Origin: a virus | DNA: 64,000 nucleotides | Reading direction: 5' to 3' (one strand) | Virus record (IMG/VR): IMGVR_UViG_3300027736_000027 | Location: 32,001 to 96,000 of that record | Shown here: in pieces, positions 1 to 64,000 of the stretch | Layout of the letters: every line of letters starts with the position of its first letter | Position numbering within the stretch: the first letter of the stretch is position 1 | The notes under the pieces: generated by a model | What the model was told of the DNA's origin: nothing | The model's input: the letters and a program-made list of their open reading frames with translations, nothing else | Database searches by the model: none | Position numbers and translations under genes: made by a program

Positions 1-68
1 GTAGATAGTGTTTGAGCCAGCCCGGTCTTACGGCCTGCTGAGCCTCCTAATTTAGGTAGATTTTTCAT
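1..68 (-). CDS. 5' part of a hypothetical protein running off the window edge
   Basis: ATG at 68 after an A-rich leader; frame MKNLPKLGGSAGRKTGLAQTLS stays open to base 1. Confidence 0.4.
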   Translation of the reverse strand, partial: MKNLPKLGGSAGRKTGLAQTLS

Positions 69-95
69 TGTTATATTTCTTTTTTTATATTATTA

Positions 96-401
96 TTATA
101 CCGATAAACAGTATCGGTGGCCGTACCTTGTCAACACCTCTGCCCATTCATACTCACCGTGCTCCACGGCCTGCTCAACCGTCTCTAAGAAGAGGCTACT
201 GATTCTCGACCTTAACCAGACCCGGTACTCTGCAGCCCAAGGCTCGGTACCTATACCCCGTTCCAAGTCAACAATATATTGTCCGACTGCCCGGTCCAGT
301 AAGAGCCAGTCGCGACCGGCGGTCTCTAACCTGATCAGCAACTCGGTCCGCATCTGGGCCAGGTCGCCTAATTCTAAATACTCATTGTAATCTGCTTTCA
401 T
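96..401 (-). CDS. hypothetical protein with C-terminal UVR-like motif (start re-assigned to 401)
   Basis: ATG at 401 with promoter motif at 408-434; C-terminal VEQAVEHGEYEWAEVL; the longer ORF from 629 only translates the GC-rich repeat. Confidence 0.65.
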   Translation of the reverse strand: MKADYNEYLELGDLAQMRTELLIRLETAGRDWLLLDRAVGQYIVDLERGIGTEPWAAEYRVWLRSRISSLFLETVEQAVEHGEYEWAEVLTRYGHRYCLSV

Positions 402-407
402 ACCTAT

Positions 408-434
408 ATTATATCCTACCTGCAGACTAAGTTT
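408..434 (-). promoter_or_regulatory. class-II promoter AAACT-N15-ATATAAT
   Basis: matches a bipartite motif found upstream of about 12 genes in the window. Confidence 0.55.
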
Positions 435-472
435 TAGCCCTACTCTCGACTGGCCAGCCTGCAGCCAGCCTA

Positions 473-668
473 CCTGGCCTGCCTGGATAGAGCCTACCTG
501 GCCTGCCTGCCGGCAGCCTGTACCGGCTCCTGGCCAGTACCCCTGGCTAGCCCTGGCTGCTGCCTGGATAGAGCCCGGCCTGCTGCCAGGGTCACTCCTG
601 GAGTCAATACCAGGCAGCCCTGGGACCACTCCTGGAGTCAGCCAGGGTCACTCCGGGAGGTGCCCCGG
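473..668. repeat. GC-rich array of CCNGG sites, about 11-bp phased from 529 to 664
   Basis: 13 CCWGG + 3 CCSGG; starts include 529,542,552,563,574,586,597,610,619,631,642,653,664. Confidence 0.85.
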
Positions 669-684
669 TAGTGAACTATGCCCC

Positions 685-727
685 TATAAAAAAAGTCTCC
701 AGGAGCAGAACTCATGACTTTTTTATA
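685..727. repeat. AT-rich inverted repeat at the centre of the GC-rich element
   Basis: TATAAAAAAAGTC (685-697) and GACTTTTTTATA (716-727). Confidence 0.75.
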
Positions 728-740
728 TTTTACCTGGTGC

Positions 741-954
741 CCCCAGGTCCAGGAACCGTCTCAGGAGCAATTTGCCCTTTTATCGGGCTCGTGGATCTTC
801 CCCCAGGTACGGGGACTCTTCCGGGTTAATTTGCCCTTTTATCTGGTTCGGGGATCTCCCCAGGTACGGGGCCTCTGCCTGGCTAATTTGTCCTAAGTGC
901 TGGTTCCTGGATTCCCCCAGGTCCAGGGCCGGTTTGGAACTAAATTTAGCCAGG
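741..954. repeat. imperfect tandem repeat, about 3.5 copies of 57-60 bp (iteron-like)
   Basis: units start CCCCAGGT at 741, 801, 858, 915 and the full units share AATTTG(C/T)CCT and GGAT. Confidence 0.85.
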
Positions 955-964
955 TCTGTTGCTG

Positions 965-972
965 TATAAATA
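965..972 (+). promoter_or_regulatory. T4-like late promoter TATAAATA
   Basis: exact gp55 consensus just upstream of the ATG at 999. Confidence 0.6.
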
Positions 973-998
973 AATTTATAAAAAAGTAGAAAAAAGTT

Positions 999-1589
999 AT
1001 GAAGTTTACAAAGGAACAAGTTGAAGCTGCCGTAAAGGCTAAAGGTTATGCCTGGTTTGAAGGCGCAGAGGACTATGACCTTAATATTGTAGGGGTCCGA
1101 AATGCCTCAACTGGCCAAGTTGTAACCAATGTATTTGATGACGTGCTAACCGTATCCTATAAAGTTGCCGGGGTTTGGAAATTTGAGAGCTGGCCAGCAA
1201 CAACTGACCCAGGTAAAAAAGGTGTCTTGGAATATCATAATGCGGCCGGGGTTGCCCGACTGGTTGAAGGCCAGTACCGGGGATCTCATACGATTAGATT
1301 GCATCAAGGCAAATACGAGGCTCTGGGGCAGGCCAAAAACGTAAAAGTATATCGTGACTCAAACAAGGATCTTACCTATAACGAGGATACCATCCAAGAA
1401 GGTATATTTGGAATCAATATTCATAAAGCGGGTGCCGACTCTACCTATGTTGAAAACTGGTCCGAAGGCTGTCAGGTATTTAAGAGGTCTGCTGACTTTG
1501 ACAAGTTCATGGCAATTTGTAGACTTGCAGCCTCAATCCATAAAAACTCTTTTAGCTATACCCTAATCCGGTCAACTGATATCAAATAA
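999..1589 (+). CDS. putative cell-wall enzyme with L,D-transpeptidase (YkuD)-like His/Cys motif
   Basis: GINIHKAG...WSEGCQV. Confidence 0.6.
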   Translation: MKFTKEQVEAAVKAKGYAWFEGAEDYDLNIVGVRNASTGQVVTNVFDDVLTVSYKVAGVWKFESWPATTDPGKKGVLEYHNAAGVARLVEGQYRGSHTIRLHQGKYEALGQAKNVKVYRDSNKDLTYNEDTIQEGIFGINIHKAGADSTYVENWSEGCQVFKRSADFDKFMAICRLAASIHKNSFSYTLIRSTDIK

Positions 1590-1602
1590 ACAATAAACAA
1601 CT

Positions 1603-2076
1603 ATGAAACACATTAAACTATTTGAAGGTTTCTCTAAAGAAGAGAATATGGCTAAGTCATATACATTAGAATTCCTGCCTAAATTCTGGGAGGATCTGGG
1701 TATTAAACGACCTGCTTTTGGTGCTGAGGCTGGTCATAGTCTTCTCAATAGAGACAATACTATAAAATTAACGGTAGGGAATGATCCAACTATTATTTAT
1801 AGAAGAGATACTCGTATGTATGATGATAAAGGTCGAAAGGCAGGTAGAGATGATGATAGTATATGGTATTCGATTAATTTATACAAAACTCCCAATGGCT
1901 TTATTTCCAAATCTGATAATAATATGCTAAAATATTCTCTTGATTTTCAAGAGGACAAAGATGCTAAGATAGGTGGTAATATGAATTTGATACCAATAGG
2001 TGTAGGAGAATTCGCATCAGAAGAAGTCGGTAGTATGGATAATAGGGAATTTTTTAAGATAGTAGCTGTTGACTAA
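1603..2076 (+). CDS. leader-tagged hypothetical protein (putative internal head protein)
   Basis: N-terminus MKHIKLFEGFSKEE. Confidence 0.75.
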   Translation: MKHIKLFEGFSKEENMAKSYTLEFLPKFWEDLGIKRPAFGAEAGHSLLNRDNTIKLTVGNDPTIIYRRDTRMYDDKGRKAGRDDDSIWYSINLYKTPNGFISKSDNNMLKYSLDFQEDKDAKIGGNMNLIPIGVGEFASEEVGSMDNREFFKIVAVD

Positions 2077-3169: not shown

Positions 3170-3949
3170 ATGAAACACATTAAACTATTTGAAAGTTTCT
3201 CTGAAGAGTCAGGGTCAAGTCCAATTGAGGATTTTTATAAAAAGTATTATCCATCATCTTTAACGGCATCGCTAGACCCAAACTCCCAAGAAGCAAAGGA
3301 TCTACTGCTATATATTGACCTAAATTTAGGTCGACTAAGATCATCCGATGACACTGAGTTTTTACAAATACAAAAGAAATCTGGCTGGGGAGATATATTT
3401 CCAACCTATACAGAAATATTGAAAACTGATGATGCAGAACTTACTAAACTGGTTGATAACATTTATAAAAATGAAATTGCAGCCGTTAAGTCAATTTATA
3501 ATAACAAAAGCGATACGCAATTAACTGAAAGTTTTGATTTATCAAATGATAGCTGGAGAAATTGGGCTATTAGTAAAACTAAAAATCTGACATATGATGA
3601 TTTAGATAGTCATGAACAATCTTTTGTTGACCAAATATCTGATTTTATTAATGATACCTATTCTTATAAATTTCAAGAGTATAATGTTAATAGATATTCT
3701 AACGCGCCGCCCGCTGGGTTTAATAAACAATTGTTAAGGGTTGAAAATGGGCTAAGCCGAAAAGATATCGTTAATTTATCTGAAGATCTTGATACACGGT
3801 TTAATAAAGATAAATTTCTAACAATAGATGAATCTGGAACTCATTTTATAAAACTCGAACAAATTCTTGGAGATTACTATAAGTTGATATTAGACCCGCT
3901 TTTTATAAAAAAATATGAAAAAGAAGCCAAAGACTTTTATCGTAACTAA
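3170..3949 (+). CDS. leader-tagged hypothetical protein
   Basis: MKHIKLFESFSEE; internal LTES. Confidence 0.75.
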   Translation: MKHIKLFESFSEESGSSPIEDFYKKYYPSSLTASLDPNSQEAKDLLLYIDLNLGRLRSSDDTEFLQIQKKSGWGDIFPTYTEILKTDDAELTKLVDNIYKNEIAAVKSIYNNKSDTQLTESFDLSNDSWRNWAISKTKNLTYDDLDSHEQSFVDQISDFINDTYSYKFQEYNVNRYSNAPPAGFNKQLLRVENGLSRKDIVNLSEDLDTRFNKDKFLTIDESGTHFIKLEQILGDYYKLILDPLFIKKYEKEAKDFYRN

Positions 3950-4640: not shown

Positions 4641-4988
4641 ATGACAAATAGAATAATTAAAGATTTTAGTGGCTGGAACCACATTACTGAAACCAGTGAT
4701 ATGGCTGATACTGCACCAGTTGCAGCCCCGGCCACTACTACTGGAACCACTGGAACCACTACACCGACTACACCAACCGGTACAGCTGCAACTAATGGAT
4801 CAGCTGGAACCTCTGGAACCGCTGGAACGGGTGGAACCTCTGCACCCGCTGCAACCTCTGCACCCGCTGCAACTAATGGATCAGCTGGAACTGCTGGAAC
4901 CTCTGCACCCACTGGTGTTGTTTATAATGGTGGAGCCCCGCCGGCTCAAACCCCGGCTCCTGCACCATACAGTCTACTTAGACAGTAA
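4641..4988 (+). CDS. leader-tagged Thr/Gly/Ala/Pro low-complexity protein with GTS/GTA motifs
   Basis: MTNRIIKDFSGWNHITE leader; GSAGTSGTAGTGGTS; GATAAATAAC at 4602. Confidence 0.7.
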   Translation: MTNRIIKDFSGWNHITETSDMADTAPVAAPATTTGTTGTTTPTTPTGTAATNGSAGTSGTAGTGGTSAPAATSAPAATNGSAGTAGTSAPTGVVYNGGAPPAQTPAPAPYSLLRQ

Positions 4989-5032
4989 GTTAAAGAAGAC
5001 TAATTAAAGAGTTTATAAAAAAGAAGATAAAT

Positions 5033-5638
5033 ATGCCAAATAGAATAGTTAAAGACTTTAAGAACTGGAACCTCATTACTGAAACCACTGATATTGTTGG
5101 TGCTACACAGGTCCTAGGTACTGGTACAGTTGGTGGTGGTTCACCCGGTTCCGATATTCCTACCGGTGGAGCCGAGGTAAAGGCTCCTGCTGGAACGTCC
5201 GGAACGTCTGGAGGATCCAACCGCGGTACAAGTTATCAAGCGGTAACGGCCGGAACTGATGGAACTGCCGCAACTTCTGCCCAGTTATTGCCGGCAGCGG
5301 TTGATAAACTGTCAAAAGAAATTGCTGAAATGATTGTTGCCTTATTTGCAAAGACTAGAGCATTTTGGGCTGGACAAAATGACCTTAACCTAAATGCAAC
5401 CGGTATGGTTGATGACAATGAAGAAACTGGAGTCAAAATATTTGAGGACTATTGGACTAAAAATATTTTACCAAAAATTTATATGCTACCTGTAGAAAAT
5501 AAAAATAAAGCAAGTCTTACTGCTCTCAAGACTCAAATTTCAGCTGCGATTACTGCTAGAAACACGAGTTTTACGTTTCAAATCTTCACAAGTGCAAGTA
5601 ATATTCCTACCAGCTACACAATAAACCCGGATTTTTAA
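5033..5638 (+). CDS. leader-tagged protein (second leader family)
   Basis: MPNRIVKDFKNWNLITE; AGTSGTSGGS. Confidence 0.75.
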   Translation: MPNRIVKDFKNWNLITETTDIVGATQVLGTGTVGGGSPGSDIPTGGAEVKAPAGTSGTSGGSNRGTSYQAVTAGTDGTAATSAQLLPAAVDKLSKEIAEMIVALFAKTRAFWAGQNDLNLNATGMVDDNEETGVKIFEDYWTKNILPKIYMLPVENKNKASLTALKTQISAAITARNTSFTFQIFTSASNIPTSYTINPDF

Positions 5639-5653
5639 AAAATAATAAATAAT

Positions 5654-6952
5654 ATGTCAAATAGAATAATTAAAGACTTTAAAGGCTGGAGCCTTATTCA
5701 TGAAAATAAAGGTCCAAATCCTGGTCCAAATCCTTTTCCACCCGGAACCAAAGATTGGGAGGATTGGCAAATGAACGTAGGAGGTGATGTTGAGGACGCG
5801 AACAGAACAGCAGCAGAGGCAGAGGTCGCGAAACAAGCAGCGGCAGAGGCAGAGGCTGCAAAAACTGCCGCTGCAAAAACTGCGGCTGCTGCTGGAACCT
5901 CTGGCACGGCTGGAACATCTGCTGTCACGAAAGCAGTCACATCAGTACCAGCTGCCCCGATTGTACCAACACCGGACTTAACAAAAGCAAATGCGGCTGC
6001 CTTAACTCGTAATGACTGGGCTGCAATACAAACTAAACTAAATGCGGCTGAACTAGCTTTACAGCAGACAACTCTAGTTAACCAGAGTAATCCTGCAAAT
6101 TTTAGTTTTGATAAAAAACCTAACCTAAATCCATTAATTAAAGAGTCTAGGTCAATGACTAAGCTATATGAAGAGCAATTAGTACCAGACGGCTTAGTTG
6201 GCCCAAAAACTTTATCCGCAATTGACACCTTTGTCTCCAACTATAATTCAAATCCGATAAATACCACAAAGCTCCCAGCCGATCCACTTAAGGATAAAGC
6301 GACGGCTACTACAATTAACCCGCTAGTATTAGCTGCAATTATTGCAGCAAGTACCGCACCAACTACTCAGCCGCCATCCGGACCAACCGGACCGGCCGCT
6401 ATTGCAGGTTCAGTATTTGGACCATCTGCAAATATTACAGAGGCTGATTGGGAGCCACAAATGACTAAAGACGCTCAAGGTAAGGACCAATCTACTTATT
6501 TAGAACCTACTTCACTACTACTCCAGGCCGCTAAACTGTTTATCTCTTCAACTTATAAACTGCTTGGCACGAACGAGGACAACATAATTAAAATTATTGA
6601 AAAGTGTGGATCCGCATCTGACTTTTATAAACTTAATGCACTAATATTTCAGTATTTAACTGTAACAGCTAAAAAGGCAGGTATGGATATTGCATATATA
6701 ATAAATGATGAGCTAGAAGGTGATAACAATGACGAAATTAAATTAATTAAAGATGCACTTACTAAATTAAATGTGCAATCGAGTTATGAGCTATATGCTG
6801 AAGGAACCGCTGAAGAAGGGTTTAAAAAGAATAGTTTTAAGATTACTATACCGTCAGGATCTGATCCAGAAACGGTATTACCGACTGCTGTGTATAAAAA
6901 ACTTGAGACTCAATACTTTAATCGGACAGCATCAACTGATATATTTTTATAA
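5654..6952 (+). CDS. leader-tagged protein with peptidoglycan-binding motif and annexin-like repeat
   Basis: MSNRIIKDFKGWSLIHE; PDGLVGPKTLSAI; LLGTNEDNIIKII...IINDELEGD. Confidence 0.7.
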   Translation: MSNRIIKDFKGWSLIHENKGPNPGPNPFPPGTKDWEDWQMNVGGDVEDANRTAAEAEVAKQAAAEAEAAKTAAAKTAAAAGTSGTAGTSAVTKAVTSVPAAPIVPTPDLTKANAAALTRNDWAAIQTKLNAAELALQQTTLVNQSNPANFSFDKKPNLNPLIKESRSMTKLYEEQLVPDGLVGPKTLSAIDTFVSNYNSNPINTTKLPADPLKDKATATTINPLVLAAIIAASTAPTTQPPSGPTGPAAIAGSVFGPSANITEADWEPQMTKDAQGKDQSTYLEPTSLLLQAAKLFISSTYKLLGTNEDNIIKIIEKCGSASDFYKLNALIFQYLTVTAKKAGMDIAYIINDELEGDNNDEIKLIKDALTKLNVQSSYELYAEGTAEEGFKKNSFKITIPSGSDPETVLPTAVYKKLETQYFNRTASTDIFL

Positions 6953-18022: not shown

Positions 18023-19273
18023 ATGATACGCAGTTTTAGCAAATTTATAAAAACACTTAATGAGTCAACCCTAATGTCACCATTGCCTGTCTTTAATGTA
18101 ACTCACCCATTTGGAGAACCCAGGACATCACGTCCGCATAATGGTGTTGATTTGGCGACATATAGAGATGGAAAAATTGCATCTGGAGTGCCAGTTACTT
18201 CACCAGCTGACGGAGAGGTAATTGTTGCTAATATAAATGGTAATAGTATGTGTGGCGGAACTATTAGAATTAAACATGCTAATAATATTGTAACCGGTTA
18301 TTGTCATATTAAACAAGTTGATGTAAAAACCGGGGACCAAGTTAAACAGGGCCAAGTTATTGGATTAAGCGGTGGTGGAGCTGGTGATATAGGAAAAGGC
18401 AATTCAACCGGACCGCATTTACATTTTACCGTTACTGTAAATAATGAGGTGGTTGATCCAGCTGAATATATTGATAAACTTAATTTGCCACAATCTACTG
18501 AAAAAGTTGATGATAACACTGTATTAATTAATGCTGATTTAATTAACAGATTAATTAAAAAGTTGAAGGAGAAGAATTTTAGCCAAAGCGATTTAAGCGC
18601 CTATTCTAAATCTAGCGATTCCAAATCTAGTGGTGGATCACAGTCTACTGGTAATATTAATATTAGTTCTGGAAACTTTGACACAAATCAAAAAGAAAAT
18701 ATTTCATTATTAATTAGTTCAATGACAGCTAAAGGAATAACTGATCCACTTACCCAAATAGGTATATTATCCGTAATTTCAAAAGAGTGTAATTTTAAAC
18801 CTAAAAGTGAAGTTGGATATGACACAACCTCAAACTCAAGAATTAAAGGAATATTTGGAAGTAGAGTTAGCAGCTTATCTGATTCAGAATTAGATGCTCT
18901 TAAGAGTAAGCCTGAAGATTTTTTTAATTTGGTTTATGCAAATATTATTGGTAATGGACCAGCGTCAAGTGGAGACGGTTGGACATATAGAGGTCGTGGA
19001 TTTAACCAGTTAACCGGTAGAGCTAATTATAAAAAATACGGAAATATAATAGGTAAAGACCTAGTTGGCAATCCGGATTTGGTAAACGATCCTAAAATAG
19101 CTGCAGATATTGCAATAGCATTTGCAACAAAAGGAAAACCTGCATCAAACTTTCCAACCTTTACTGATAAAACTGCCGCTGCTGAATTTTTTGCAGATAT
19201 TAACGCAGGCGGCGGAGTAAGTAGCCATCGAAGTCATGCAGTTGCTGCCACTAATAAGTTTAATATTGCATAA
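18023..19273 (+). CDS. leader-tagged M23 peptidase + GH19-like lysozyme
   Basis: MIRSFSKFIKTLNES; HNGVD, YCH, STGPHLHF; DGWTYRGRGFNQLTGRANY. Confidence 0.9.
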   Translation: MIRSFSKFIKTLNESTLMSPLPVFNVTHPFGEPRTSRPHNGVDLATYRDGKIASGVPVTSPADGEVIVANINGNSMCGGTIRIKHANNIVTGYCHIKQVDVKTGDQVKQGQVIGLSGGGAGDIGKGNSTGPHLHFTVTVNNEVVDPAEYIDKLNLPQSTEKVDDNTVLINADLINRLIKKLKEKNFSQSDLSAYSKSSDSKSSGGSQSTGNINISSGNFDTNQKENISLLISSMTAKGITDPLTQIGILSVISKECNFKPKSEVGYDTTSNSRIKGIFGSRVSSLSDSELDALKSKPEDFFNLVYANIIGNGPASSGDGWTYRGRGFNQLTGRANYKKYGNIIGKDLVGNPDLVNDPKIAADIAIAFATKGKPASNFPTFTDKTAAAEFFADINAGGGVSSHRSHAVAATNKFNIA

Positions 19274-27141: not shown

Positions 27142-27168
27142 AAAAAAGCCGAATTTCTTCAGCTTTTT
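27142..27168 (-). terminator. probable terminator
   Basis: AAAAAAGCCGAA / TTCAGCTTTTTT. Confidence 0.55.
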
Positions 27169-27189
27169 TAAAAATTTATTTAAGTAAAA

Positions 27190-28692
27190 CTATTTTTTGT
27201 AAAAATCATTAAACGTTTTTAGTCGAGTAAAGTTAATAGATTCAGTAACTGCAGTGAATCCGCCGGTACCGCCTTGATCAGCTTGAGATGCTTCCTTTTG
27301 CATGCCTTGAGAAATCTTGTCAACTTGTCCAGCGAGAGGTCCTGATCCTGTAATACCTGCCCAATAACCGTTACATAGAGAAAGCATGTCTCCACTAATT
27401 TCAGAAGAAACACAATACTCGTAAAAGTCTCCGTCTTCTCCAAAATTCTTAGCCCATGATTGCATAACCGCCTGTGCTGTTTTTGGACTAAGTGTAGTAA
27501 TCATGAATGTGATTTGTAATTCATTACTACCGTCTGTATAACCTTTTGCTAATTCTTTGATTTGCGTACAAAATGCAAATGCTGCATCTTCTGCTGTAAA
27601 GTTTTGAACTTCTTGTTGTTCTGGATCCTCTGAGGCGGCAGCCGCTAGTCCTTGGCCAGCCGCGAGGCCTGCACCTGCACCTGCACCGATTTTTGCACCG
27701 ACTTTTGCAAAATAACCTGCCTTAGTTATTGCTGAGAAACCTGATTTTGCTAGGTCAGCGTCCTTTGCACCCTTTGCGAGCGTTGCAACGTTTGCCGCTC
27801 CGTTAATTCCAACCCCAGTTACTTTATTTGTTCCTTTTGCTGCAGTTAAGCCGCTTCTAAACCCTCTGAGACCGCCTTTTAATTTATTAATTGATCCAGC
27901 TGCTCTAACCATTTTGGCTCCACTAATAAGTCCTCTAGCAGCGGCACCAACTCCAAATGTACAGAGTCCAATTGCAACGTCTACAACCAATGATTGTAAA
28001 AAATCTACACCTATTGCTGCTGAAATTTCTCCATCGGTAATGGTATCACCATAAACTGCCCGAGCTAAAACTTCAGGAGTTCCAGAGAAGTCTGCTTCAA
28101 CTGCGTCCATTAGAGACTCATTGTATGCGCTCTGATATGCAGTACCTAATGCTTTAAATATTTCAGGTATATCCGCGTTTTTGTCATAACCAATACGATA
28201 AATTGCTCCAGCTAGTGCACCAAGTTTATCTTCATCTGTTCCAAAATTTAATCCAAAAATTGAACTTCCTTCAACTCCTTTTCTAAATTGAGTTGCTAAG
28301 AAATTCATATCTAGTCCTTCAATTACCCGTGCCGTTGAATCAAAATCAATATAAACTCCAGATTTTCCATCTGCTGTTTTACCACCAGCTACATAGATTG
28401 AAATTGCGTATTCTTTATCTCCGATTTTTATAGTAAGTCTATTTGGGCCAGGCGAACGTGCTTCTACTAGATTTGCTGCCTCAGTATTAATTTTTAAAAA
28501 TTCTGGATCTTGAACTGCCTTACCTGCGTTATCAATAATTAATTTCTTAACTGCCTTAACTTCAGGAGAATCCGATTCTTGAATTGAAATAGTGTTTGTA
28601 CTTACGTCACCAGCCGCTTCATTTAGCGAATAGTAGCCTAAAGATTTGTTCTCGTGTAGTAGTGCGTAATTTAATAGGTTAATCTGTTTCAT
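27190..28692 (-). CDS. leader-tagged protein with two annexin-like repeats and Gly/Ala-rich hydrophobic segments
   Basis: LLHE...SLNE; FGTDEDKL...AYQSAYNESLMDAVEADFSG; GSNELQI...SSEISGD; C-terminal TESINFTRLKTFNDFYKK. Confidence 0.7.
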   Translation of the reverse strand: MKQINLLNYALLHENKSLGYYSLNEAAGDVSTNTISIQESDSPEVKAVKKLIIDNAGKAVQDPEFLKINTEAANLVEARSPGPNRLTIKIGDKEYAISIYVAGGKTADGKSGVYIDFDSTARVIEGLDMNFLATQFRKGVEGSSIFGLNFGTDEDKLGALAGAIYRIGYDKNADIPEIFKALGTAYQSAYNESLMDAVEADFSGTPEVLARAVYGDTITDGEISAAIGVDFLQSLVVDVAIGLCTFGVGAAARGLISGAKMVRAAGSINKLKGGLRGFRSGLTAAKGTNKVTGVGINGAANVATLAKGAKDADLAKSGFSAITKAGYFAKVGAKIGAGAGAGLAAGQGLAAAASEDPEQQEVQNFTAEDAAFAFCTQIKELAKGYTDGSNELQITFMITTLSPKTAQAVMQSWAKNFGEDGDFYEYCVSSEISGDMLSLCNGYWAGITGSGPLAGQVDKISQGMQKEASQADQGGTGGFTAVTESINFTRLKTFNDFYKK

Positions 28693-28724: not shown

Positions 28725-29801
28725 CTAGACTGGTTTATTAATATAGATAAAACCGTTTGTACCGGCTGTACCGGCTGTGCCTGCCGTACCTGCAGTACCG
28801 GCAGTACCGGCGGTACCTGCTGTACCAGAGGTACCAGATTTGGTTAACTCAGAGGCATCCCATATTTCTGGTAATCTATTATTACCTGCTGGCTTGCTAG
28901 TTGGCACTAGTAATTTAACTAGTGTACAGTATTTAGCAAGTTTTTCTAGATCAGCGGCTTCAATTGAATTATGTGGAGTATTTAACTTATCATCAAGTAG
29001 AGCACCATATGCCAGTGCAGTTTTTGGTCCGTATGTTCCGTCTGCTGAACCAAGTATAGCTGAAAGTTTTAGATCAGGCAGGGCTTTACTAAATTCAGGA
29101 GCTAATAATATTAACTGAGCAAATTTTACTTCTCTACCCTTTAATCCAGACTTAGCAAGTGTACCGATATTAGGAACACCTTTACTTAACAGCTTATCTT
29201 TTAAAAATGCAAGTACATCAGCATCGGCTGCTGGTAATACAATAGGATCCTTTTTATTTTGATCATCCTTCTTTTCCTCTTCTTTTATTTTTTCCTTATG
29301 CTCTTCCGTTTTAGGATTAACCTTTTGACCGTCTACAACCAGCTTATCCATATCAGTATCTAACCAGACATTTATACCACCAGGTTTCAGATACGGCGGT
29401 ACATTAGGGACCTTTGCCATATCAAAACGATCAGCCATTCTAAACGATAGTACTGCTCTTAATATCGCATTGTCATTATTAAATATTTGAGGTATAACTC
29501 CTCTTTGTTTGAGTGTATCTACTGTAATAAACACAAAGGTACCGGTTGCTGCCTTTTTAAATTTTTCATCACTTGCTAAATATGTTTCAAGATGTGTTTT
29601 AACTAGTGCTAGTGCTTGGTCTTTCGTTGCCTCATTTGGTGGATTAATTTTTGCAACTACTGAAAAGTTAGCTGTCTCACCGGCGTTTTTATCTGGTGTA
29701 TTAAGGTTGAGTTTTACAACTTCGTCTTGTTTTTCGTTAATCGGTGAAAAACTTGCTGAATTTGATTCAGTTAGGAATTGACTAAATGATTTAAATATCA
29801 T
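28725..29801 (-). CDS. leader-tagged peptidoglycan-binding protein with C-terminal (GTA)n tail
   Basis: MIFKSFSQFLTES; ADGTYGPKT; GTS(GTA)7GTNG; TATAAATAAC at 29856-29863 (-). Confidence 0.75.
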   Translation of the reverse strand: MIFKSFSQFLTESNSASFSPINEKQDEVVKLNLNTPDKNAGETANFSVVAKINPPNEATKDQALALVKTHLETYLASDEKFKKAATGTFVFITVDTLKQRGVIPQIFNNDNAILRAVLSFRMADRFDMAKVPNVPPYLKPGGINVWLDTDMDKLVVDGQKVNPKTEEHKEKIKEEEKKDDQNKKDPIVLPAADADVLAFLKDKLLSKGVPNIGTLAKSGLKGREVKFAQLILLAPEFSKALPDLKLSAILGSADGTYGPKTALAYGALLDDKLNTPHNSIEAADLEKLAKYCTLVKLLVPTSKPAGNNRLPEIWDASELTKSGTSGTAGTAGTAGTAGTAGTAGTAGTNGFIYINKPV

Positions 29802-29892
29802 AAATTTATTTACTTTTTTTATAATTAACTAAATAATATATTAGTTATACATAGTTATTTATATAGCATACATTAAGGATAAATAACTCTAT

Positions 29893-31020
29893 ATGAAATA
29901 TCTTTTTGAATTTGCAGAATATTTAGAGTCAACTGCACCGGATCAATCATTTGGAATACTTGGTGATGCTGGCACAGACTCTCAATTTGGTGAACAAACT
30001 GGTTATTTTAAAGAGTTAATTCAGTATGCAGCTGACTCAGGCGTTGATGCCTTTGTATTTACTGACTTTACCTCAACCGACTGTACGGCCTGGACCCTAG
30101 CTAATGATAACTGGACCTCATCCGTTAGAGGATTACCTGCGGTATTTTACGATAGAAGCTTTAAAAATAAAACAGATAAAGGTAAAACTTCAAATACCCG
30201 ATTTTTATTAAATTGTGGGTGTACTCCATTAAACAGTCCAGATTTTAGAAAAGTATCACTTGATAAATATTTAACCCATGAAACCTTAATAAATGAAGAC
30301 CTTGGAAAATTAAAGATTCCATATACTCAAAAATACAGTAAATCAAGTCTTATTAAGTTTATGAGTAATTATCCTGAAGCTATTATTAAACCTAGATTTG
30401 GCTCAGGCGGTAAAGGTATAATTAAGGTATCTAAAAACAAGTCAGGCTATTTAATTAACTATTTAGATAAGTCAACCTCTGCGACTGACTTAAATTTAGC
30501 AAATCGCATTGATGAAGTTCGTAAAAGCATGAGGTCCAATGGCCGAATTTATATTATTCAGGAGTGTATTGCGCTACCTCAATATAATGGTGGAGTATTT
30601 GATGTTAGGGTAATGTATCAAAGGGATAAGGCTAAAAAACCAGTAAGAACCGGCATGGCAGTTAGACTTGCTGCTCCCAGTAAAATTACAGCAAATTTAC
30701 ATCAAGGCGGCAGTAAAGAAACCCTAAGTAATATTTTAAAATCAATATTTAATCAAGACATAGACGGTCCCATTGCCCAGTCAATTAGAGATGCATCACA
30801 GGTAATATTTGATATTTTAGATAAAAAGTGTGGACCGATTGGAGAAATTGGATTGGATTTTTTAATTGATCAAAGCGGCGAAATCCACCTACTAGAGGTA
30901 AATTCAATTCCAGGAAGGAATTTATTTAAAATATTACCGGATATTAGAAAAACTGCAATTCAAAGGCCAGTTGACTATGCCAAACGGTTGTTAAAGGATC
31001 TTACCAAAAAAAGCCGCTAA
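29893..31020 (+). CDS. leader-tagged ATP-grasp ligase, YheC/YheD-like
   Basis: MKYLFEFAEYLES; IKPRFGSGGKGI, IIQE, FDVRV, ANLHQGG, GLDFLID, LLEVNSIPG. Confidence 0.88.
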   Translation: MKYLFEFAEYLESTAPDQSFGILGDAGTDSQFGEQTGYFKELIQYAADSGVDAFVFTDFTSTDCTAWTLANDNWTSSVRGLPAVFYDRSFKNKTDKGKTSNTRFLLNCGCTPLNSPDFRKVSLDKYLTHETLINEDLGKLKIPYTQKYSKSSLIKFMSNYPEAIIKPRFGSGGKGIIKVSKNKSGYLINYLDKSTSATDLNLANRIDEVRKSMRSNGRIYIIQECIALPQYNGGVFDVRVMYQRDKAKKPVRTGMAVRLAAPSKITANLHQGGSKETLSNILKSIFNQDIDGPIAQSIRDASQVIFDILDKKCGPIGEIGLDFLIDQSGEIHLLEVNSIPGRNLFKILPDIRKTAIQRPVDYAKRLLKDLTKKSR

Positions 31021-31829: not shown

Positions 31830-32297
31830 TCAGGAAATTCTATCTAAAATTATTCTTTGAGCCGAGGCTATTTTAGAATAGGCTAGCTCAATATCAATAA
31901 ACCCAGCCCAGTCAATTTCGCCACTTTGTAATTGTGATTTAGGCACAGTTAAACCAGTTAAGCCAATTTCAGATAGGCTATTGATATTACAAATTAAATA
32001 GTGAATATTATTAATAACAGTTTTTCCAGAATATACCTGAATTATTTCAGTATGTGGCTCTACCTGATTAGGCTTAATTAGTATACCAATTTCCTCGTAT
32101 GTTTCCCTAACTGCAGCCTCTTCCGGAGATTCACCATCCTCTATTTTACCCTTGGGAATTCCCATAACCGGCTTAGCCCAGCTGCCATTGGTTGCATGCA
32201 CTAATAAAATTTTTGAATTATAAATTATTGCAATTCCTGCACTGTCTCTCTTTTTTTTAGAGTCACGATTAGAGAACTTTTCAAATGTATTAATCAT
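31830..32297 (-). CDS. Nudix hydrolase with short leader
   Basis: Nudix box GKIEDGESPEEAAVRETYEEIG; MINTFEKF. Confidence 0.92.
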   Translation of the reverse strand: MINTFEKFSNRDSKKKRDSAGIAIIYNSKILLVHATNGSWAKPVMGIPKGKIEDGESPEEAAVRETYEEIGILIKPNQVEPHTEIIQVYSGKTVINNIHYLICNINSLSEIGLTGLTVPKSQLQSGEIDWAGFIDIELAYSKIASAQRIILDRIS

Positions 32298-41791: not shown

Positions 41792-42018
41792 GAGTTTTGT
41801 AATTCTTGTAAAATTTTATAAAAGTCAGGAACTTCTCCAGTTTCAGACTTTATTTTATCTATTAGGAGCCGTTCCGACTCTTTTACTTCAGCTAACTGTA
41901 ATTCAATTGAATTTTTACTTAAATTTAGTATATGAGCCTGTTCTTCTAATAAATTTAAAGATTGCTGAATTTTATCGTAACTTAATACAATTTTCTTTAT
42001 TTGGTCTAGATATTTCAT
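41788..42018 (-). CDS. small coiled-coil protein
   Basis: 76 aa, overlapping start/stop codons with neighbours. Confidence 0.65.
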   Translation of the reverse strand: MKYLDQIKKIVLSYDKIQQSLNLLEEQAHILNLSKNSIELQLAEVKESERLLIDKIKSETGEVPDFYKILQELQNS

Positions 42019-43766
42019 TATGAGTATTTTACTTTTATTCCGGTACTTAGTAAATCGTATATTGCATTTAATAGTTGAGAATTAAGTTCCGATTGTGAAT
42101 TATCAACAGAGTCAGAGTCCTCTTTTGGTTCGTTAGGCTTAGTCGGGTCTTCAGGTTTAAGCGGCTGGGTATTATCAAGTTTGAATTGGTTAGCGGCAGC
42201 AGCCTTATTATTGGTTTTATTATTACTAGTATTTGTATTATTAATACTGGTATTAGTAGCGGTAGTTTTAGCGCTACTGACAAGAGTCTGTAATAACTTT
42301 TTTTGCTCCATTTGAAGTGGTGTCGGTGGCGTTTGGTTCAATTTTTTTACGTCAATCTTCTCCTTTTTTATCTCACCAGGTTTAACAAACTTGTCGGTTT
42401 CCTTCTTCTCAGATTCTTTATTAATATTAGAGTCGCCCTTAATTTGAGCTTGGGTCGGTTCGTCAAATTTCTTTTGTTCAAATTCTAATGGTTTAGTAAT
42501 ATTTGATATAATCTTCTTAGCCGCACTATCATCATCAGAAGATTTGGCCGACTCTTTAGTAATAGCAGCCGGTGTATTGTCCTTTGTATTATCCTTAGGT
42601 AATTTGGAGTCTTTTGCGGTAGGTTGGATCTTAATATCCGACGACTTAGTTTCTATTTTTGGGATTTCAGCTAATTTATTCGCCTCAGCTAAGTTAAACA
42701 TTGCCTTTTCAACCCCAGCAGGTTTTTCGGCCTTTTCGCTATCTGTCTTTTTAGTTTGTGCCTCTGTTTTTAATTGTTCCTTTTTAACTTCAGCTTCTGT
42801 TTTATATTTGTTATCTCCAGGATGCGCCTTATTATATTTTGTAATCTCTTTCTTAATGTCAGCATCTACCTTAGCTAGTTCGGTCTTGGCTATTTTTAGG
42901 GTCTCGGCAGTATACTGATCTCTATTTTTTTTATCTAGAATATATTCGTAATTGCTCTTAGACTTATATAAATCAGTAATTGTACGGCTATTGTCGGATA
43001 CGTCACTAAATGTGTTGGTTGAAGAACTTGTTATTGCGTTTGATTGATTATTATTAGTAATAGTAGTATTATTATTGACGTCTCCCTTGCTCTTTGACAG
43101 CTTTATTAACTCATTTTTCTTATCTAGATTAGCAACACTAAAATCAGTAGACACATTTGATTTATTATCAGTAGGGGTTGCTGGCTGAGCAGATCGGTTA
43201 AACACGGGAGCCGATCCATAACCATCACTTTCATTCTTGATTTTTTGTAATGCATCTGCATTAGTCAACAAATTACTTTCACTCTTAACAAACTCAATCA
43301 TGCCCGATTTACGTTGAAAAGCGTCATTTTGATCAGTTGCAATACGATTAGGTGTTAGCTCCGGTGAGTTACCTAATGACTCTTTTGCAAATGGAAAAAT
43401 AGTCGGTTCAGGAACAAGGTCGGCCTGTGCTCGTGTTACACCAGACGGAGAATTGTCAGTAATTCGCTCAGTAAGTTTATCTGGATCTGGATCAATAACC
43501 TCTGAATATCTATATAGAATAAGATCTCGAGACTCTGCAATTAAGTCCTTTAACACTCCTTTTCTTAAATTAGCTTCAACATATCCCTGGCTGTCAGCAT
43601 CAGTCTCTCCCTTTTTATATTTTGTATATTTTGTAGGTTTGCTAGTTGCTATTAAGTCTTCTTCAATAAATCCATTTCGTTGAATTACTATATATAATGA
43701 AACCGATAATCTAGATCTTTTTACATCGTTATTGATTTTATATTCAAAACTGGCACCAGTATTCAT
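42018..43766 (-). CDS. Lys/Asp/Thr/Asn-rich protein at a tape-measure-like position
   Basis: follows the gp26/gp51-like pair; TATAAATAAC at 43797-43804 (-). Confidence 0.5.
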   Translation of the reverse strand: MNTGASFEYKINNDVKRSRLSVSLYIVIQRNGFIEEDLIATSKPTKYTKYKKGETDADSQGYVEANLRKGVLKDLIAESRDLILYRYSEVIDPDPDKLTERITDNSPSGVTRAQADLVPEPTIFPFAKESLGNSPELTPNRIATDQNDAFQRKSGMIEFVKSESNLLTNADALQKIKNESDGYGSAPVFNRSAQPATPTDNKSNVSTDFSVANLDKKNELIKLSKSKGDVNNNTTITNNNQSNAITSSSTNTFSDVSDNSRTITDLYKSKSNYEYILDKKNRDQYTAETLKIAKTELAKVDADIKKEITKYNKAHPGDNKYKTEAEVKKEQLKTEAQTKKTDSEKAEKPAGVEKAMFNLAEANKLAEIPKIETKSSDIKIQPTAKDSKLPKDNTKDNTPAAITKESAKSSDDDSAAKKIISNITKPLEFEQKKFDEPTQAQIKGDSNINKESEKKETDKFVKPGEIKKEKIDVKKLNQTPPTPLQMEQKKLLQTLVSSAKTTATNTSINNTNTSNNKTNNKAAAANQFKLDNTQPLKPEDPTKPNEPKEDSDSVDNSQSELNSQLLNAIYDLLSTGIKVKYS

Positions 43767-54454: not shown

Positions 54455-54836
54455 GGGGGCGACCGGATTTGACGTTAGTTATCCAATTGAGTCTGCATGT
54501 CGAGGATGATACTTAAAGCTCGTAAACCTGGTATTACTGTAAGTTAATTGACAACAATATAACTTTCTGGAGCCTTGTTAACCAAGTTAACACTCCAGCT
54601 ACTGAAGAGCTTTTATTAGCTGCATAAGTGGTAAGCGGCAACTGCTTAAGTAACCCAAAGTTGCAAACCGATATGATCAATATCGTTAAAAGTGATATAG
54701 AAGATAAGTTCTCAGTAAACCGACCTATTCAATAAGGGAACTGTGAAGTTTGTTAGTTTAGCAAAATTAACTAAGCATGTAAACGAAGGCCTAATTTGAG
54801 GCTATACGGACGAGGTTTCGAATACCTCCGCCTCCA
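54455..54836 (+). ncRNA. ssrA: tmRNA (one-piece); tag (A)DNNITFWSLVNQVNTPATEELLLAA at 54550-54627
   Basis: acceptor GGGGGCG/CGCCTCC with G3:U pair and discriminator A; GGATTTGAC; T-arm GAGGT-TTCGAAT-ACCTC; tag ends LAA-stop; CCA not encoded. Confidence 0.95.
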
Positions 54837-54848
54837 CTGTGACTGTTT

Positions 54849-61535: not shown

Positions 61536-64000
61536 TTATAATTCTATCCAAGAGCTTTCAGGATTAAAATGTATTATTATTTTTGTATTCGTATTGCTGC
61601 TCCAAAATGTATGCCCTATTAATCTAACCGCATTTCCAACCGTTGTTGGTGCTGTTTTAGTCATACTGCCGGCAGTCGTAGCCATATATAAAGGCTCTCC
61701 AGATTTTACAACAGCTGCATAAGTAGCAGTTTCAACAAATCCATTAATTAATATAGAAGTTGGATTGGTTGATGTTGAAGATTTAACACAAATACCTAAC
61801 ATATTAAATGCAGCTGCTGAGTTTGCTGCGGTTGCATCAGCTAATATCCAAGTGTTGGTTTGTGTCCTATAACATAATTGGCCAAAGGTAATTGTTCCTC
61901 CTGCTGTTTCTGAATATAGTACAGTACCTTGATAATAATTACTAGTCCATGAATTTAAATCTCCAAGTACAGAGGTTACTCCATCTTGTATTGTTCCAGC
62001 TAATGGAGTTGGATTATATCCAGCAACTAATGAAGTTGTTGTCGCTTTTATATTAGTTCCATCATCCGTTATTGTTGAATTACCAACAGTTGAAGAAGAT
62101 GTGAATTTAACAAGGGTATTATTTGTTCCAGAAACAGCAACAGAAGTACCGCTAGAACCTGAAGTTCCAGAAGAACCACTTGACCCATTTGAACCAGTTG
62201 CACCACTAGAACCTGAAGTACCACTAGACCCACTTGAACCAGTTGCACCACTTGATCCACTAGAACCTGAAGAACCAGAAGTTCCAGAAGAACCGTTTGA
62301 CCCGGTTGCGCCACTAGAACCTGAAGAACCTGAAGTTCCACTTGAACCATTTAAACCGTTTGAACCAGTTGCACCGGACGTACCGCTAGAACCTGAAGAA
62401 CCTGAAGTTCCGCTTGAACCGTTTGAACCAGTTCCGCCTGATGTACCAGAAGTTCCATTTACTCCAGAAATACCTGAAGTACCTGAACTGCCACTAATAC
62501 CAGAAGTTCCACTTGAACCGCTTGAGCCTGATGTTCCTGAACTACCGCTTGAACCTGAGCTGCCGCTTGTTCCACTTGAACCAGAAGAGCCTGATGTTCC
62601 AGAGCTACCGCTTGAACCTGATGTTCCACTAGAGCCATTTGACCCAGTTGCACCTGACGTACCAGAGGTTCCGCTTGAACCATTTATACCAGAAGTTCCA
62701 CTTGAACCTGACGAACCTGAAGAACCGGAAGTTCCTGAACTACCACTAGAACCTGAAGAACCTGAACTACCGCTTGAGCCTGAAGAACCAGAAGTTCCAC
62801 TTGAACCTGAAGTTCCGCTTGAACCATTTGCACCGTTTAAGCCAGACGTACCACTTGAACCTGAGTTACCGGAAGTTCCACTTGACCCGCTAGAACCTGA
62901 ATTACCAGAAGTACCGCTTGAACCATTTGCACCAGAAGTACCAGAAGTTCCATTTACTCCAGAAATACCAGAAGTACCACTTGAACCGCTTAAACCTGAT
63001 GTTCCAGAACTACCACTTGAACCTGAAGAACCAGAAGTTCCACTTGAACCAGAAGTTCCGCTTGAACCTGAACTACCACTTGAACCTGATGTACCTGAGC
63101 TACCACTTGAACCAGAAGTTCCAGATATTCCAGATGTTCCACTTGAACCTGATACGCCTGATGTTCCAGAACTACCGCTTGAACCGGAAGAACCTGAACT
63201 ACCGCTTGAACCTGAAGAACCGGAAGTCCCACTTGAACCTGAAGTTCCAGAGCTACCGCTTGAACCTGATATACCAGAAGTTCCACTAGAACCATTTATA
63301 CCAGAAGTACCGCTTGATCCTGAACTACCACTTGAACCTGATGTACCTGAGCTACCGCTTGTTCCACTTGAACCAGAAGAACCAGAAGAACCGTTTGAAC
63401 CAGTTGCACCAGATGTACCAGATGTACCATTTATTCCTGAAATACCAGAAGTACCGCTTGAACCTGAAATACCAGAAGTACCGCTTGAGCCTGAACTACC
63501 GCTTGAGCCTGATGTTCCACTTGAACCACTTGACCCAGAAGTTCCACTTGAACCTGAGATACCGCTTGTTCCACTTGAACCAGAAGAACCTGATGTTCCA
63601 CTTGACCCGGAACTACCGCTTGAACCAGAAGTTCCGCTTGAACCGCTTGATCCAGAAGTTCCGCTTGATCCAGATTCACCACTTGAACCAGAAGAACCTG
63701 AACTACCACTTAAACCTGAGCTACCGCTTGTTCCACTTGAACCAGAAGTTCCAGAAGAACCATTTATACCAGAAGTTCCTGAACTACCGCTTGAGCCGGA
63801 AGTTCCACTAGAACCATTAGACCCAGATGTTCCAGAAGAACCTGAAGTTCCACTTGAACCATTTATACCAGAAGTACCGCTTGAACCCGATGTTCCGTTT
63901 ATTCCTGAAATACCAGAAGTACCGCTTGAACCTGATATACCGCTTGAACCAGAAGAACCAGAAGTACCGCTTGAACCTGACGAACCGCTTGAACCTGAAC
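61536..64000 (-). CDS. very long Gly-X-Y (Ser/Thr) repeat fibre protein, 5'-truncated by the window edge
   Basis: Gly frame at the window edge equals the frame of the C-terminal domain ending WIEL-stop; the ORF track reports only the last 88 aa. Confidence 0.85.
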   Translation of the reverse strand, partial: SGSSGSSGSSGTSGSSGSSGISGSSGTSGISGINGTSGSSGTSGINGSSGTSGSSGTSGSNGSSGTSGSSGSSGTSGINGSSGTSGSSGTSGSSGLSGSSGSSGSSGESGSSGTSGSSGSSGTSGSSGSSGSSGTSGSSGSSGTSGISGSSGTSGSSGSSGTSGSSGSSGSSGTSGISGSSGTSGISGINGTSGTSGATGSNGSSGSSGSSGTSGSSGTSGSSGSSGSSGTSGINGSSGTSGISGSSGSSGTSGSSGTSGSSGSSGSSGSSGSSGSSGTSGVSGSSGTSGISGTSGSSGSSGTSGSSGSSGSSGTSGSSGTSGSSGSSGSSGTSGLSGSSGTSGISGVNGTSGTSGANGSSGTSGNSGSSGSSGTSGNSGSSGTSGLNGANGSSGTSGSSGTSGSSGSSGSSGSSGSSGSSGTSGSSGSSGSSGTSGINGSSGTSGTSGATGSNGSSGTSGSSGSSGTSGSSGSSGTSGSSGSSGSSGTSGSSGSSGTSGISGSSGTSGISGVNGTSGTSGGTGSNGSSGTSGSSGSSGTSGATGSNGLNGSSGTSGSSGSSGATGSNGSSGTSGSSGSSGSSGATGSSGSSGTSGSSGATGSNGSSGSSGTSGSSGTSVAVSGTNNTLVKFTSSSTVGNSTITDDGTNIKATTTSLVAGYNPTPLAGTIQDGVTSVLGDLNSWTSNYYQGTVLYSETAGGTITFGQLCYRTQTNTWILADATAANSAAAFNMLGICVKSSTSTNPTSILINGFVETATYAAVVKSGEPLYMATTAGSMTKTAPTTVGNAVRLIGHTFWSSNTNTKIIIHFNPESSWIEL
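62144..64000 (-). repeat. about 200 degenerate 9-bp units encoding GSS/GTS/GSN/GAT/GIN triplets
   Basis: recurrent GAACC, GAAGTTCC, GAACTACC, CTTGAACC on the + strand. Confidence 0.95.

Follow-up and report, generated by a model that had tools for sequence, protein, structure and literature searches.

Introduction

Annexins are generally treated as a eukaryotic family of Ca2+- and membrane-binding proteins with sparse bacterial members. Each annexin repeat, ~70 residues long, folds into five helices (A–E), and annexins bind acidic phospholipids in a Ca2+-dependent manner. Their type II Ca2+ site combines the sequence (M/L)-K-G-x-G-T in the A–B loop with an acidic residue ~38 positions downstream. 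Bacterial annexins have variable numbers of repeats, often in pairs, and are fused to other domains and to transmembrane (TM) regions (Kodavali et al., 2014, PMC3894181); the GxGTD motif of their repeats is often partly substituted, and a hydrophobic residue (W, F, I, V, or M) precedes GT (PMC3894181). One dedicated survey of bacterial annexins found none in viruses (PMC3894181), and our own literature searches found no phage or viral annexin. Here, we describe an annexin-like protein of 500 residues (P0001) encoded on the minus strand at positions 27190–28692 of a 64,000-nucleotide stretch of viral DNA (positions 32,001 to 96,000 of IMG/VR virus record IMGVR_UViG_3300027736_000027; hereafter, the window). 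P0001 and its relatives are almost certainly true, very divergent annexin homologs, and we consider the possibility that the protein is carried in the phage head and acts on the host membrane during DNA entry.

The T7 proteins gp14, gp15, and gp16 are ejection proteins, with gp16 carrying a transglycosylase, and we know of no ejection protein of T7 or of giant phages that has an annexin fold. In phage T4, the packaged DNA surrounds the internal proteins (PMC3012670). For head targeting, the first 10 residues of internal protein IPIII are sufficient (PMC9026906; PMC3012670), and the protease gp21 cleaves after L/I-x-E (PMC9026906). Giant phages of the SPN3US/phiKZ type carry a bolus of ejection proteins, with processing after Glu by a gp21-related protease (PMC5694885; PMC7411985).

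Results

Sequence evidence for annexin homology

All of the annexin-like strings that an initial annotation of the window had quoted from this locus fall within the single 500-residue open reading frame (ORF) at 27190–28692 (minus strand, as for every part of the gene given below). We collected 44 homologs and aligned 31 of them (A1). None of the 44 has a functional name, and those that are named are called 'hypothetical protein'. The encoded protein consists of two five-helix annexin repeats, split by an insert, that follow a leader of 14 or 25 residues and a small alpha/beta domain. The leader (residues 1–25; 28618–28692) has two candidate sites for protease cleavage, after E14 (LLHE↓N) and after E25 (SLNE↓A), where the arrow marks the candidate cut. 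The alpha/beta domain comprises residues 33–127 (28312–28596), repeat 1 comprises residues 128–228 (28009–28311), and repeat 2 comprises residues 366–465 (27298–27597); between the repeats, a Gly/Ala-rich basic insert spans the 137 residues from 229 to 365 (27598–28008). Repeat 1, assigned by profile–profile comparison (hhalign) and by superposition of the predicted fold, holds the motifs FGTDEDKL (150–157), AYQSAY (185–190), and EADFSG (199–204), and repeat 2 holds KGYTDG (383–388), with the loop K383-G-Y-T-D, and SSEISGD (429–435). Residues G151, T152, E154, K383, G384, Y385, T386, E391, and E431 (the last within SEISGD) are invariant in the 31 sequences of A1, and position 201 is acidic (D or E) in all of them.

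The initial annotation had proposed that these motifs mark annexin repeats. The Pfam Annexin profile (PF00191) did match the whole protein, yet the score of 17.4 bits (E = 0.0048) lies below the gathering cut-off of 25 bits. Repeat 1 alone scored 18.6 bits (E = 0.002), and repeat 2 alone gave no Pfam Annexin match. Matches at E ≤ 1 were obtained for 24 of the 31 members of A1 (best E = 4.7e-5); a more remote member, P0082, reached the cut-off with a whole-protein score of 25.6 bits, and in another, P0086, the match falls in repeat 2. When compared with PDB sequences, the A1 profile retrieved annexins almost exclusively (best E = 5.7e-4).

Pfam alone being insufficient, the decisive test of homology was an exhaustive search of 1.84 billion representative proteins with the profile of the target family. 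Beyond the family, this search retrieved multi-repeat proteins at E-values from 7e-11 to 1e-3, and all 10 of the distant matches that we tested were Pfam annexins, with E-values down to 1e-101. The nearest true annexins retrieved include a deltaproteobacterial one, and one distant match bears the NCBI name 'annexin [Deltaproteobacteria bacterium]'. From Pfam-verified annexin matches we cut 24 canonical repeats, which were used for hhalign comparisons and for a hidden Markov model (HMM). Repeat 1 aligned with the 24 true annexin repeats at a probability of 98.8% (E = 5e-17, 67 columns) and repeat 2 at 86.4% (E = 4.7e-6, 64 columns), compared to probabilities of at most 3.2% and E-values of at least 0.014 for six control segments from the same proteins. 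The choice of the 24 repeats could favor repeat 1, because the profile of repeat 1 retrieved them; this selection bias does not apply to repeat 2, nor to the repeat of a second protein described below. Among the 150 ORFs of the genome, the HMM of true annexin repeats found P0001 at E = 2.9e-12, with both repeats as domains. The two repeats are not significantly alike in a direct hhalign comparison (E = 0.064), and HMMs built from repeat 1 and repeat 2 matched no other ORF of the genome. A window gene at 3170–3949 was considered as annexin-like and not counted, as it matches only profile positions 18–53, without the Gly loop.

The exhaustive search adds ~25 further clusters at 50% identity, with the same order of leader, repeat 1, insert of 140–250 residues, and repeat 2. 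Altogether, at least ~70 sequence clusters and loci with a two-repeat annexin module make up a conserved phage family, which widens the distribution of annexins. PHROGs holds no family for P0001, and tblastn searches of 50,697 deposited phage records with P0001, two remote homologs, and a true annexin gave no match.

Predicted annexin fold

The AlphaFold2 (AF2) model of P0001 has a mean predicted local distance difference test (pLDDT) score of 58, being confident at residues 33–228 and 366–465 and below 50 at 229–365. Five helices follow each GT(D)E-type loop, spanning residues 154–227 and 388–464; those of repeat 1 (154–170, 175–190, 194–201, 205–213, and 220–227) come after the loop G147-L-N-F-G151-T-D-E, with the acidic residue at D201. 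Annexins were the top PDB matches of the model in Foldseek (E = 3e-4). With VIA-align, annexin A2 (5lq0) superposed at Z = 13.8 with a root-mean-square deviation (rmsd) of 3.2 Å over 177 residues, and all 50 chains listed were annexins or annexin fusions; the note to this tool states that helical models may reach Z ~13 by chance. In a fold search independent of Foldseek against 48,161 representative chains, the top 10 chains were all of annexin fold (Z = 13.5 to 8.2), compared to Z = 6.2 for the best unrelated chain, which is a PAS-like match on the N-terminal domain. Whole annexins reached Z = 13.5 over 178 residues, and rmsd values were 3.2–3.4 Å across both searches. The five-helix character of the repeats, as first proposed from the motifs, holds in the model: domain 1 of annexin I (1bo9) superposed on residues 126–215 with all 73 of its 73 residues at 1.8 Å (Z = 8.2). 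On the side of repeat 2, the astrotactin-2 chain 5j67 superposed on residues 365–450 at Z = 9.1. Because ~165–189 residues superpose simultaneously, both repeats are in an annexin-like mutual arrangement in the model. They are thus predicted to pack as one two-repeat half of the annexin core, with the insert occupying the place of repeats II and III. A search of the ESM Atlas gave nothing usable. The N-terminal alpha/beta domain (pLDDT ~57–80) had only weak PAS-like fold matches (Z = 5–6.2), such as the N-terminal PAS domain of TraJ, and this predicted resemblance is too weak for naming the domain.

P0001 thus compares with eukaryotic annexins (PF00191; annexin A2, annexin A5, domain 1 of annexin I, and the giardins) in its five-helix repeat and in the GT(D)E loop after helix A. 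The eukaryotic signature Y..(Y/F)GE(S/D)L...(I/V)..(D/E)(F/L)SG reads AYQSAYNESLMDAVEADFSG in P0001, and the model places an acidic residue in the D–E turn and packs the repeats as in half of an annexin core. Unlike the eukaryotic proteins, P0001 is virus-encoded, has a leader, an alpha/beta domain, and a 137-residue insert, and scores below the Pfam cut-off; only two repeats were detected in it, not the four (or eight) that form the annexin disc, and its Ca2+ loops are non-canonical, with a spacing in repeat 1 that is ~11 residues longer. Like bacterial annexins, it has a hydrophobic residue (F150) before GT and a free architecture. It differs from the bacterial architectures described (PMC3894181) in combining a split pair of repeats and a long insert with a T4-type leader, and in sequences that are too diverged for Pfam.

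A basic, Gly/Ala-rich insert

A Gly/Ala-rich hydrophobic segment had been noted between the two motif regions, and residues 229–365 indeed contain 39% Gly plus Ala, with a net charge of +7 and one TM-grade stretch. This stretch (~223–258) starts in the last helix of repeat 1 and has a peak 19-residue Kyte–Doolittle mean of 1.85; basic amphipathic stretches follow at ~247–291 and 313–330, and a weaker Gly/Ala zipper at ~331–354. An insert of 140–250 residues with a charge of +2 to +23 is present in 28 of the 28 family members that have both modules. Its basic charge is kept in the remote homologs, whereas TM-grade hydrophobicity is not.

An N-terminal leader resembling the tags of T4 internal proteins

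Many ORFs of the genome begin M-x-(I/L)-K-x-F-x-x-(F/W)..., followed by (L/I/V)-x-E. A loose form of this leader pattern matches 25 of 105 N-termini, compared to ~5% of internal windows. In four independent alignments, P3 of the candidate cleavage site is always L, I, V, or M and P1 is always E: at E14 and E25 in the target family, at E17 in the family of the gene at 5654, at E12 and E23 in the partner encoded next to P0001, and at E20 in 21 remote homologs. E25 is invariant in A1 and E14 is present in 30 of the 31 sequences, and the 30 columns past E25 are variable (identity 0.29, 43% gaps). In the 5654 family, E17 is likewise invariant, and a leader that is 93% identical is followed by 30 columns of 9% identity, as would be seen for a conserved tag that can be removed. 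The motif corresponds to the consensus L/I-x-E of T4 gp21 (PMC9026906).

A protease of the gp21 family (PF03420) was found above the cut-off in two relatives (93–94% complete) that carry the target gene. In these relatives, the PF03420 gene (64429–66411, minus strand, in relative G001) adjoins a Gp23 capsid gene (E = 2.5e-42), and the capsid protein of G001 begins MATKIFKRLNDASVTE↓T. Near-complete members of the lineage share with T4 both a capsid protein of gp23 type and a gp21-type protease. The tag, too, is like that of T4 IPI, IPII, IPIII, and Alt in being a short N-terminal L/I-x-E sequence common to unrelated proteins with variable cargo sets (PMC9026906; PMC3012670), although the leaders here are longer, at 12–25 residues with one or two sites. 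T4 Alt is processed at both ends. The C-terminal tail of P0001 (residues 466–500; 27193–27297) is of low complexity and then reads VTE↓S with LKTFNDFYKK, so that the protein ends ...VTE↓SINFTRLKTFNDFYKK, a leader-like sequence after a further x-x-E site; the tail, which is kept in part of the A1 family and absent from the rest, could be a second, C-terminal propeptide as in Alt.

Other leader-tagged proteins have domains that point to the cell envelope. The plus-strand gene at 18023–19273 encodes a leader-tagged protein (MIRSFSKFIKTLNE↓S) with matches to Peptidase_M23 (E = 6.5e-23) and Glyco_hydro_19 (E = 1.1e-7), as well as to PHROG endolysin and minor head protein families, and is a candidate head-packaged cell-wall hydrolase. 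The envelope-themed set comprises this M23 and GH19 protein, a protein (L045) that joins an annexin-like repeat to Phage_lysozyme, and the 5654 protein, which joins a region resembling peptidoglycan (PG)-binding domains to an annexin-like repeat. Compared to the anti-restriction and ADP-ribosylating cargo of T4, the candidate cargo here would be far larger and made up of membrane- and wall-directed modules. The label of 'cargo protein' that had been given to P0001 is plausible on indirect grounds, namely the leader, the gp21-type protease and gp23 of the relatives, and an upstream element resembling a late promoter.

Genomic context and a late-type two-gene unit

The window lies within a 110,950-bp IMG/VR record that is rated 41% complete. 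Contigs that carry homologs are 253 kb and 252.6 kb long and rated 94% and 93% complete, and the source is a fragment of a ~250-kb jumbo phage of the T4 superfamily. Its large terminase (TerL) is of T4 type, with huge-phage metagenome-assembled genomes, Sphingomonas phage PAU, Tenacibaculum phage PTm1, and T4-like cyanophages as nearest relatives, and the genome encodes a baseplate wedge gene.

The partner gene (28725–29801, minus strand) ends 32 nucleotides upstream of the gene for P0001 and encodes 358 residues (alignment A4). Its product starts with a leader (MIFKSFSQFLTE↓S), contains the motif DGxYGPKT, and has a short collagen-like tail of Gly, Thr, and Ala. As the partner has no Pfam PG_binding match, a PG-binding reading of DGxYGPKT rests on the sequence as judged by eye. 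A T4-late-promoter-like element, TATAAATA, lies at 29856–29863 on the minus strand, 55 nucleotides upstream of the partner gene. Nine of the 17 genomic copies of TATAAATA are within 80 nucleotides upstream of a start on the same strand, compared to 17% for 55 permuted 8-mers (p = 8e-4); by number the element is not over-represented (11 found versus 13 expected), so that position alone is informative. Copies occur at window positions 965, 4037, 10454, 29856, 43797, and 54378, and genome-wide the element stands 7–57 nucleotides upstream of nine gene starts, including those of the baseplate wedge gene and of a 582-residue gene at 42018–43766. A ATAAATAA core was present upstream of the partner gene in five of the five relatives examined. 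These observations suggest that T4-type late promoters operate in the source lineage. Directly past the stop codon of the P0001 gene is a terminator-like hairpin with a T-run (27142–27169, minus strand), and five relatives have a hairpin at the matching place with differing stems, followed by a GTATAAT box before the ligase gene. With TATAAATA upstream and the hairpin downstream, the two genes therefore appear to form a late unit that is separate from the neighboring replication genes.

Gene neighborhoods were read from IMG/VR loci only. The order of a leader protein of 330–400 residues followed by the annexin-like protein was found at five of five close loci and seven of seven remote loci, with the partner always adjacent to and co-oriented with the target. 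In a remote clade, natural 838-residue fusions of a partner with the annexin-like protein (P0100, P0152, and P0154; compare L027:4870–7590) occur on contigs of 49, 46, and 19 kb. The fusion retains an internal ...MFE↓QSAV site, at which the prohead protease would cleave it as a polyprotein. The partner of the remote clade has no detectable homology to that of the window (hhalign probability 0.2%), and the P0100 fusion therefore supports coupling in the remote clade only. Divergent from the pair is a gene for a YheC/D-type ATP-grasp enzyme (29893–31020, plus strand; E = 1.6e-55), an arrangement that is kept in three relatives (L002, L004, and L010).

Further annexin-like proteins

The 432-residue protein encoded at 5654–6952 (plus strand; alignment A2) has a leader (MSNRIIKDFKGWSLIHE↓N), a variable linker, a PG-binding-like region, and one annexin-like repeat (residues 284–371; 6503–6766) with five predicted helices, LGTNED at 304–309, and NDELEGD at 351–357. 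An annexin motif next to a PG-binding motif had been noted in this gene. In hhalign, the repeat aligned with the 24 true annexin repeats at a probability of 96.7% (E = 4.2e-10, 63 columns). The PG-binding match is weak and lies ~110 residues upstream: the motif at residues 170–191 (6161–6226) matches PG_binding_3 at E = 0.043, and PG_binding_1 and PG_binding_3 each weakly match 15 of the 29 members of the family. When the A2 profile was compared with PDB sequences, all but one of the top 52 rows were annexins (best E = 7e-4). AF2 modeled the repeat with pLDDT of 72–90 in 10-residue blocks, and Foldseek placed annexins first for the model at E ≥ 0.1 (rmsd 3.1–3.7 Å, 77–88 columns), a match between predicted and known structures that is only suggestive. 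The Pfam Annexin profile matched no member of the 5654 family, nor a piece covering most of the repeat, and PHROGs holds no family for this protein. The tandem genes at 4641, 5033, and 5654 (window 4641–6952, plus strand) share the near-identical leader M(T/P/S)NRI(I/V)KDF..W..I.E, followed by unrelated low-complexity regions rich in Thr, Gly, Ala, and Pro, and from their sequences look like a cassette array behind one tag.

L045, a 281-residue protein encoded outside of the window (G000 genome 7324–8169, minus strand), has a leader (MKYLQVFEGWINE↓A), an annexin-like repeat at ~19–81 (true-annexin HMM E = 6e-4 over 150 ORFs; hhalign probability 55%), and a GH24 Phage_lysozyme domain (PF00959) above the Pfam cut-off. 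A muramidase and an annexin-like module are therefore joined in one ORF.

Discussion

A possible role at the site of DNA entry

We propose, with a probability of about 50% for the reading as a whole, that P0001 is a head-packaged, ejected membrane binder. Expressed in a two-gene unit with its leader-tagged partner, under a promoter of late type, the protein would be brought into the prohead core by its leader, acting as a T4-like capsid-targeting sequence, and a gp21-type prohead protease would cut the leader off after (L/I/V)-x-E. The mature protein would then ride in the head with the DNA and with the other leader-tagged proteins, the lysozyme, the M23/GH19 hydrolase, and the PG-binding proteins. 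On infection it would be ejected into the envelope, where the annexin loop face would dock on the cytoplasmic membrane through the head groups of anionic phospholipids, possibly via Ca2+ held by the GT(D)E loops together with D201 and E431, and the basic, hydrophobic insert would engage the bilayer or the entering DNA and could stabilize, anchor, or reseal the entry site. In its proposed place of action, P0001 would resemble the ejection proteins of T7 and the giant phages, which are stored in the head, leave with the DNA, and act on the wall and membrane at entry, and no sequence or fold relation between P0001 and these proteins was found. A bacterial protein, P0112, joins an eCIS_core domain (DUF4157) to an annexin repeat. 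The eCIS_core domain marks proteins tied to extracellular contractile injection systems, structures that are related to phage tails. Unlike P0001, P0112 has canonical annexin repeats and neither leader nor insert, and it may, by analogy, be a parallel and independent example of cargo that is likely injected and carries an annexin module.

Several observations weigh against a packaged and ejected membrane binder. The Pfam score of P0001 is below the cut-off, and neither Ca2+ loop is canonical: in repeat 1 the loop is G-x-x-x-G-T and the acidic D/E201 lies 50 residues past G151 instead of ~38, and in repeat 2 the loop is K-G-Y-T with the second Gly missing, with E431 as the invariant acidic residue. 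A TM-grade insert (19-residue Kyte–Doolittle mean > 1.6) is found in ~12 of 28 members and 8 of 24 remote ones, and the insert of P0001 was modeled with pLDDT below 50. In the general annexin topology, as distinct from our model, the termini of a repeat lie on the face opposite the Ca2+ and membrane loops. The insert would therefore exit on that opposite face, which complicates a picture in which insert and loops engage the same membrane and, by analogy with annexins, would better suit a bridging role than a simple membrane plug. PF03420 was not found in the source fragment, which is 41% complete. A leader-like N-terminus (MKYLFEFAEYLE↓S) is also present on the cytoplasmic-looking ATP-grasp enzyme and the loose pattern matches the ligase, and the tag may therefore lack specificity. 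Finally, the tblastn search of 50,697 phage records revealed no cultured relative with the target gene.

Alternative explanations

The leader-like N-terminus of the ATP-grasp enzyme and the match of the loose pattern to the ligase would be expected if the shared N-terminus were a habit of the lineage or a signal for translation or folding, and P0001 an annexin-like protein that is made in the infected cell and never packaged. Such a protein would attach to the cytoplasmic membrane from within the cell by means of its insert, whose single TM-grade segment could serve as an anchor, and its annexin pair, and might act in membrane remodeling, in anchoring assembly or replication, in superinfection exclusion, or in lysis timing; the gene pair is indeed near replication and repair genes (the ligase, a kinase-like protein, an OB-fold protein, and an exonuclease-like protein). 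We regard this as unlikely. The conserved terminator divides the P0001 gene from the ligase block, and the late-type TATAAATA stands upstream of the pair. Moreover, an invariant (L/I/V)-x-E before hypervariable linkers fits a cleaved tag, and the leader-tagged partners with cell-wall hydrolase or binding domains lack a hydrophobic signal peptide in the N-termini read. For such proteins, ejection from outside the cell would be the simplest route to the wall.

Alternatively, P0001 might be carried in the head chiefly as a DNA-binding protein, with its basic insert organizing the packaged genome, in the manner of the basic T4 internal proteins, or holding the leading end of the DNA and its annexin pair serving as a protein–protein contact or as a bridge between the DNA end and the membrane. 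Positive charge is the most conserved property of the insert (+2 to +23 in 28 members) and hydrophobicity is not conserved, T4 internal proteins lie within the packaged DNA (PMC3012670), and an exit of the insert opposite the membrane loops, as annexin topology in general would have it, suits bridging. Gly/Ala zippers and TM-grade segments, however, typify regions that act on membranes, not those that bind DNA; Pfam, PHROGs, and the fold search revealed no known DNA-binding fold; and the conserved annexin loops with their invariant acidic residues argue for the usual ligand, a cation with phospholipid. This explanation therefore seems to us improbable.

Convergence or chance, with a generic helical repeat bearing a GT(D)E-like motif and no common ancestry, could be read into the sub-threshold Pfam score, the lack of a Pfam match for repeat 2 alone, the dissimilarity of the two repeats (hhalign E = 0.064), and the Z ~13 that helical models may reach by chance, but it is very hard to maintain given the significant library-wide matches to true annexins, the full-repeat profile alignments with clean controls, the sharp gap between annexin-fold chains (Z ≥ 8.2) and unrelated folds (Z ≤ 6.2), and the conservation of the hallmark positions.

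Implications

How the DNA of T4-like phages passes the cytoplasmic membrane and what purpose the many head proteins of giant phages serve are open matters in phage biology, and the tagged set of membrane- and wall-directed proteins provides concrete candidates for a role in DNA entry. More tentatively, and with the odds somewhat against the full statement, P0001 and its relatives would be the first virus-encoded annexins, and a clade of giant T4-like phages would pack and inject a tagged kit of annexin-type membrane binders, in part joined to or paired with lysozyme, M23/GH19, and PG-binding modules, that builds, anchors, or reseals the site of DNA entry. If so, the kit would be a counterpart, in bacterial viruses, of annexin-mediated membrane repair, and the split protein, with its two repeats, would represent an annexin core reduced to a minimum, with a membrane-active insert of its own. 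P0001 also offers a natural 'half annexin' for the study of membrane binding by this fold, and the leader, should it function like its T4 counterpart, is a candidate tag with which foreign proteins could be loaded into these capsids.

Additional features of the source genome

Between the baseplate wedge gene and a block of small genes lies a full-length transfer-messenger RNA (54455–54839, plus strand; Rfam RF00023, 100 bits, E = 8e-40), for which ARAGORN predicts a tag peptide ending ...LLLAA. The G+C content is ~46% at window positions 1–2000 and 62001–64000, compared to ~33% inside.

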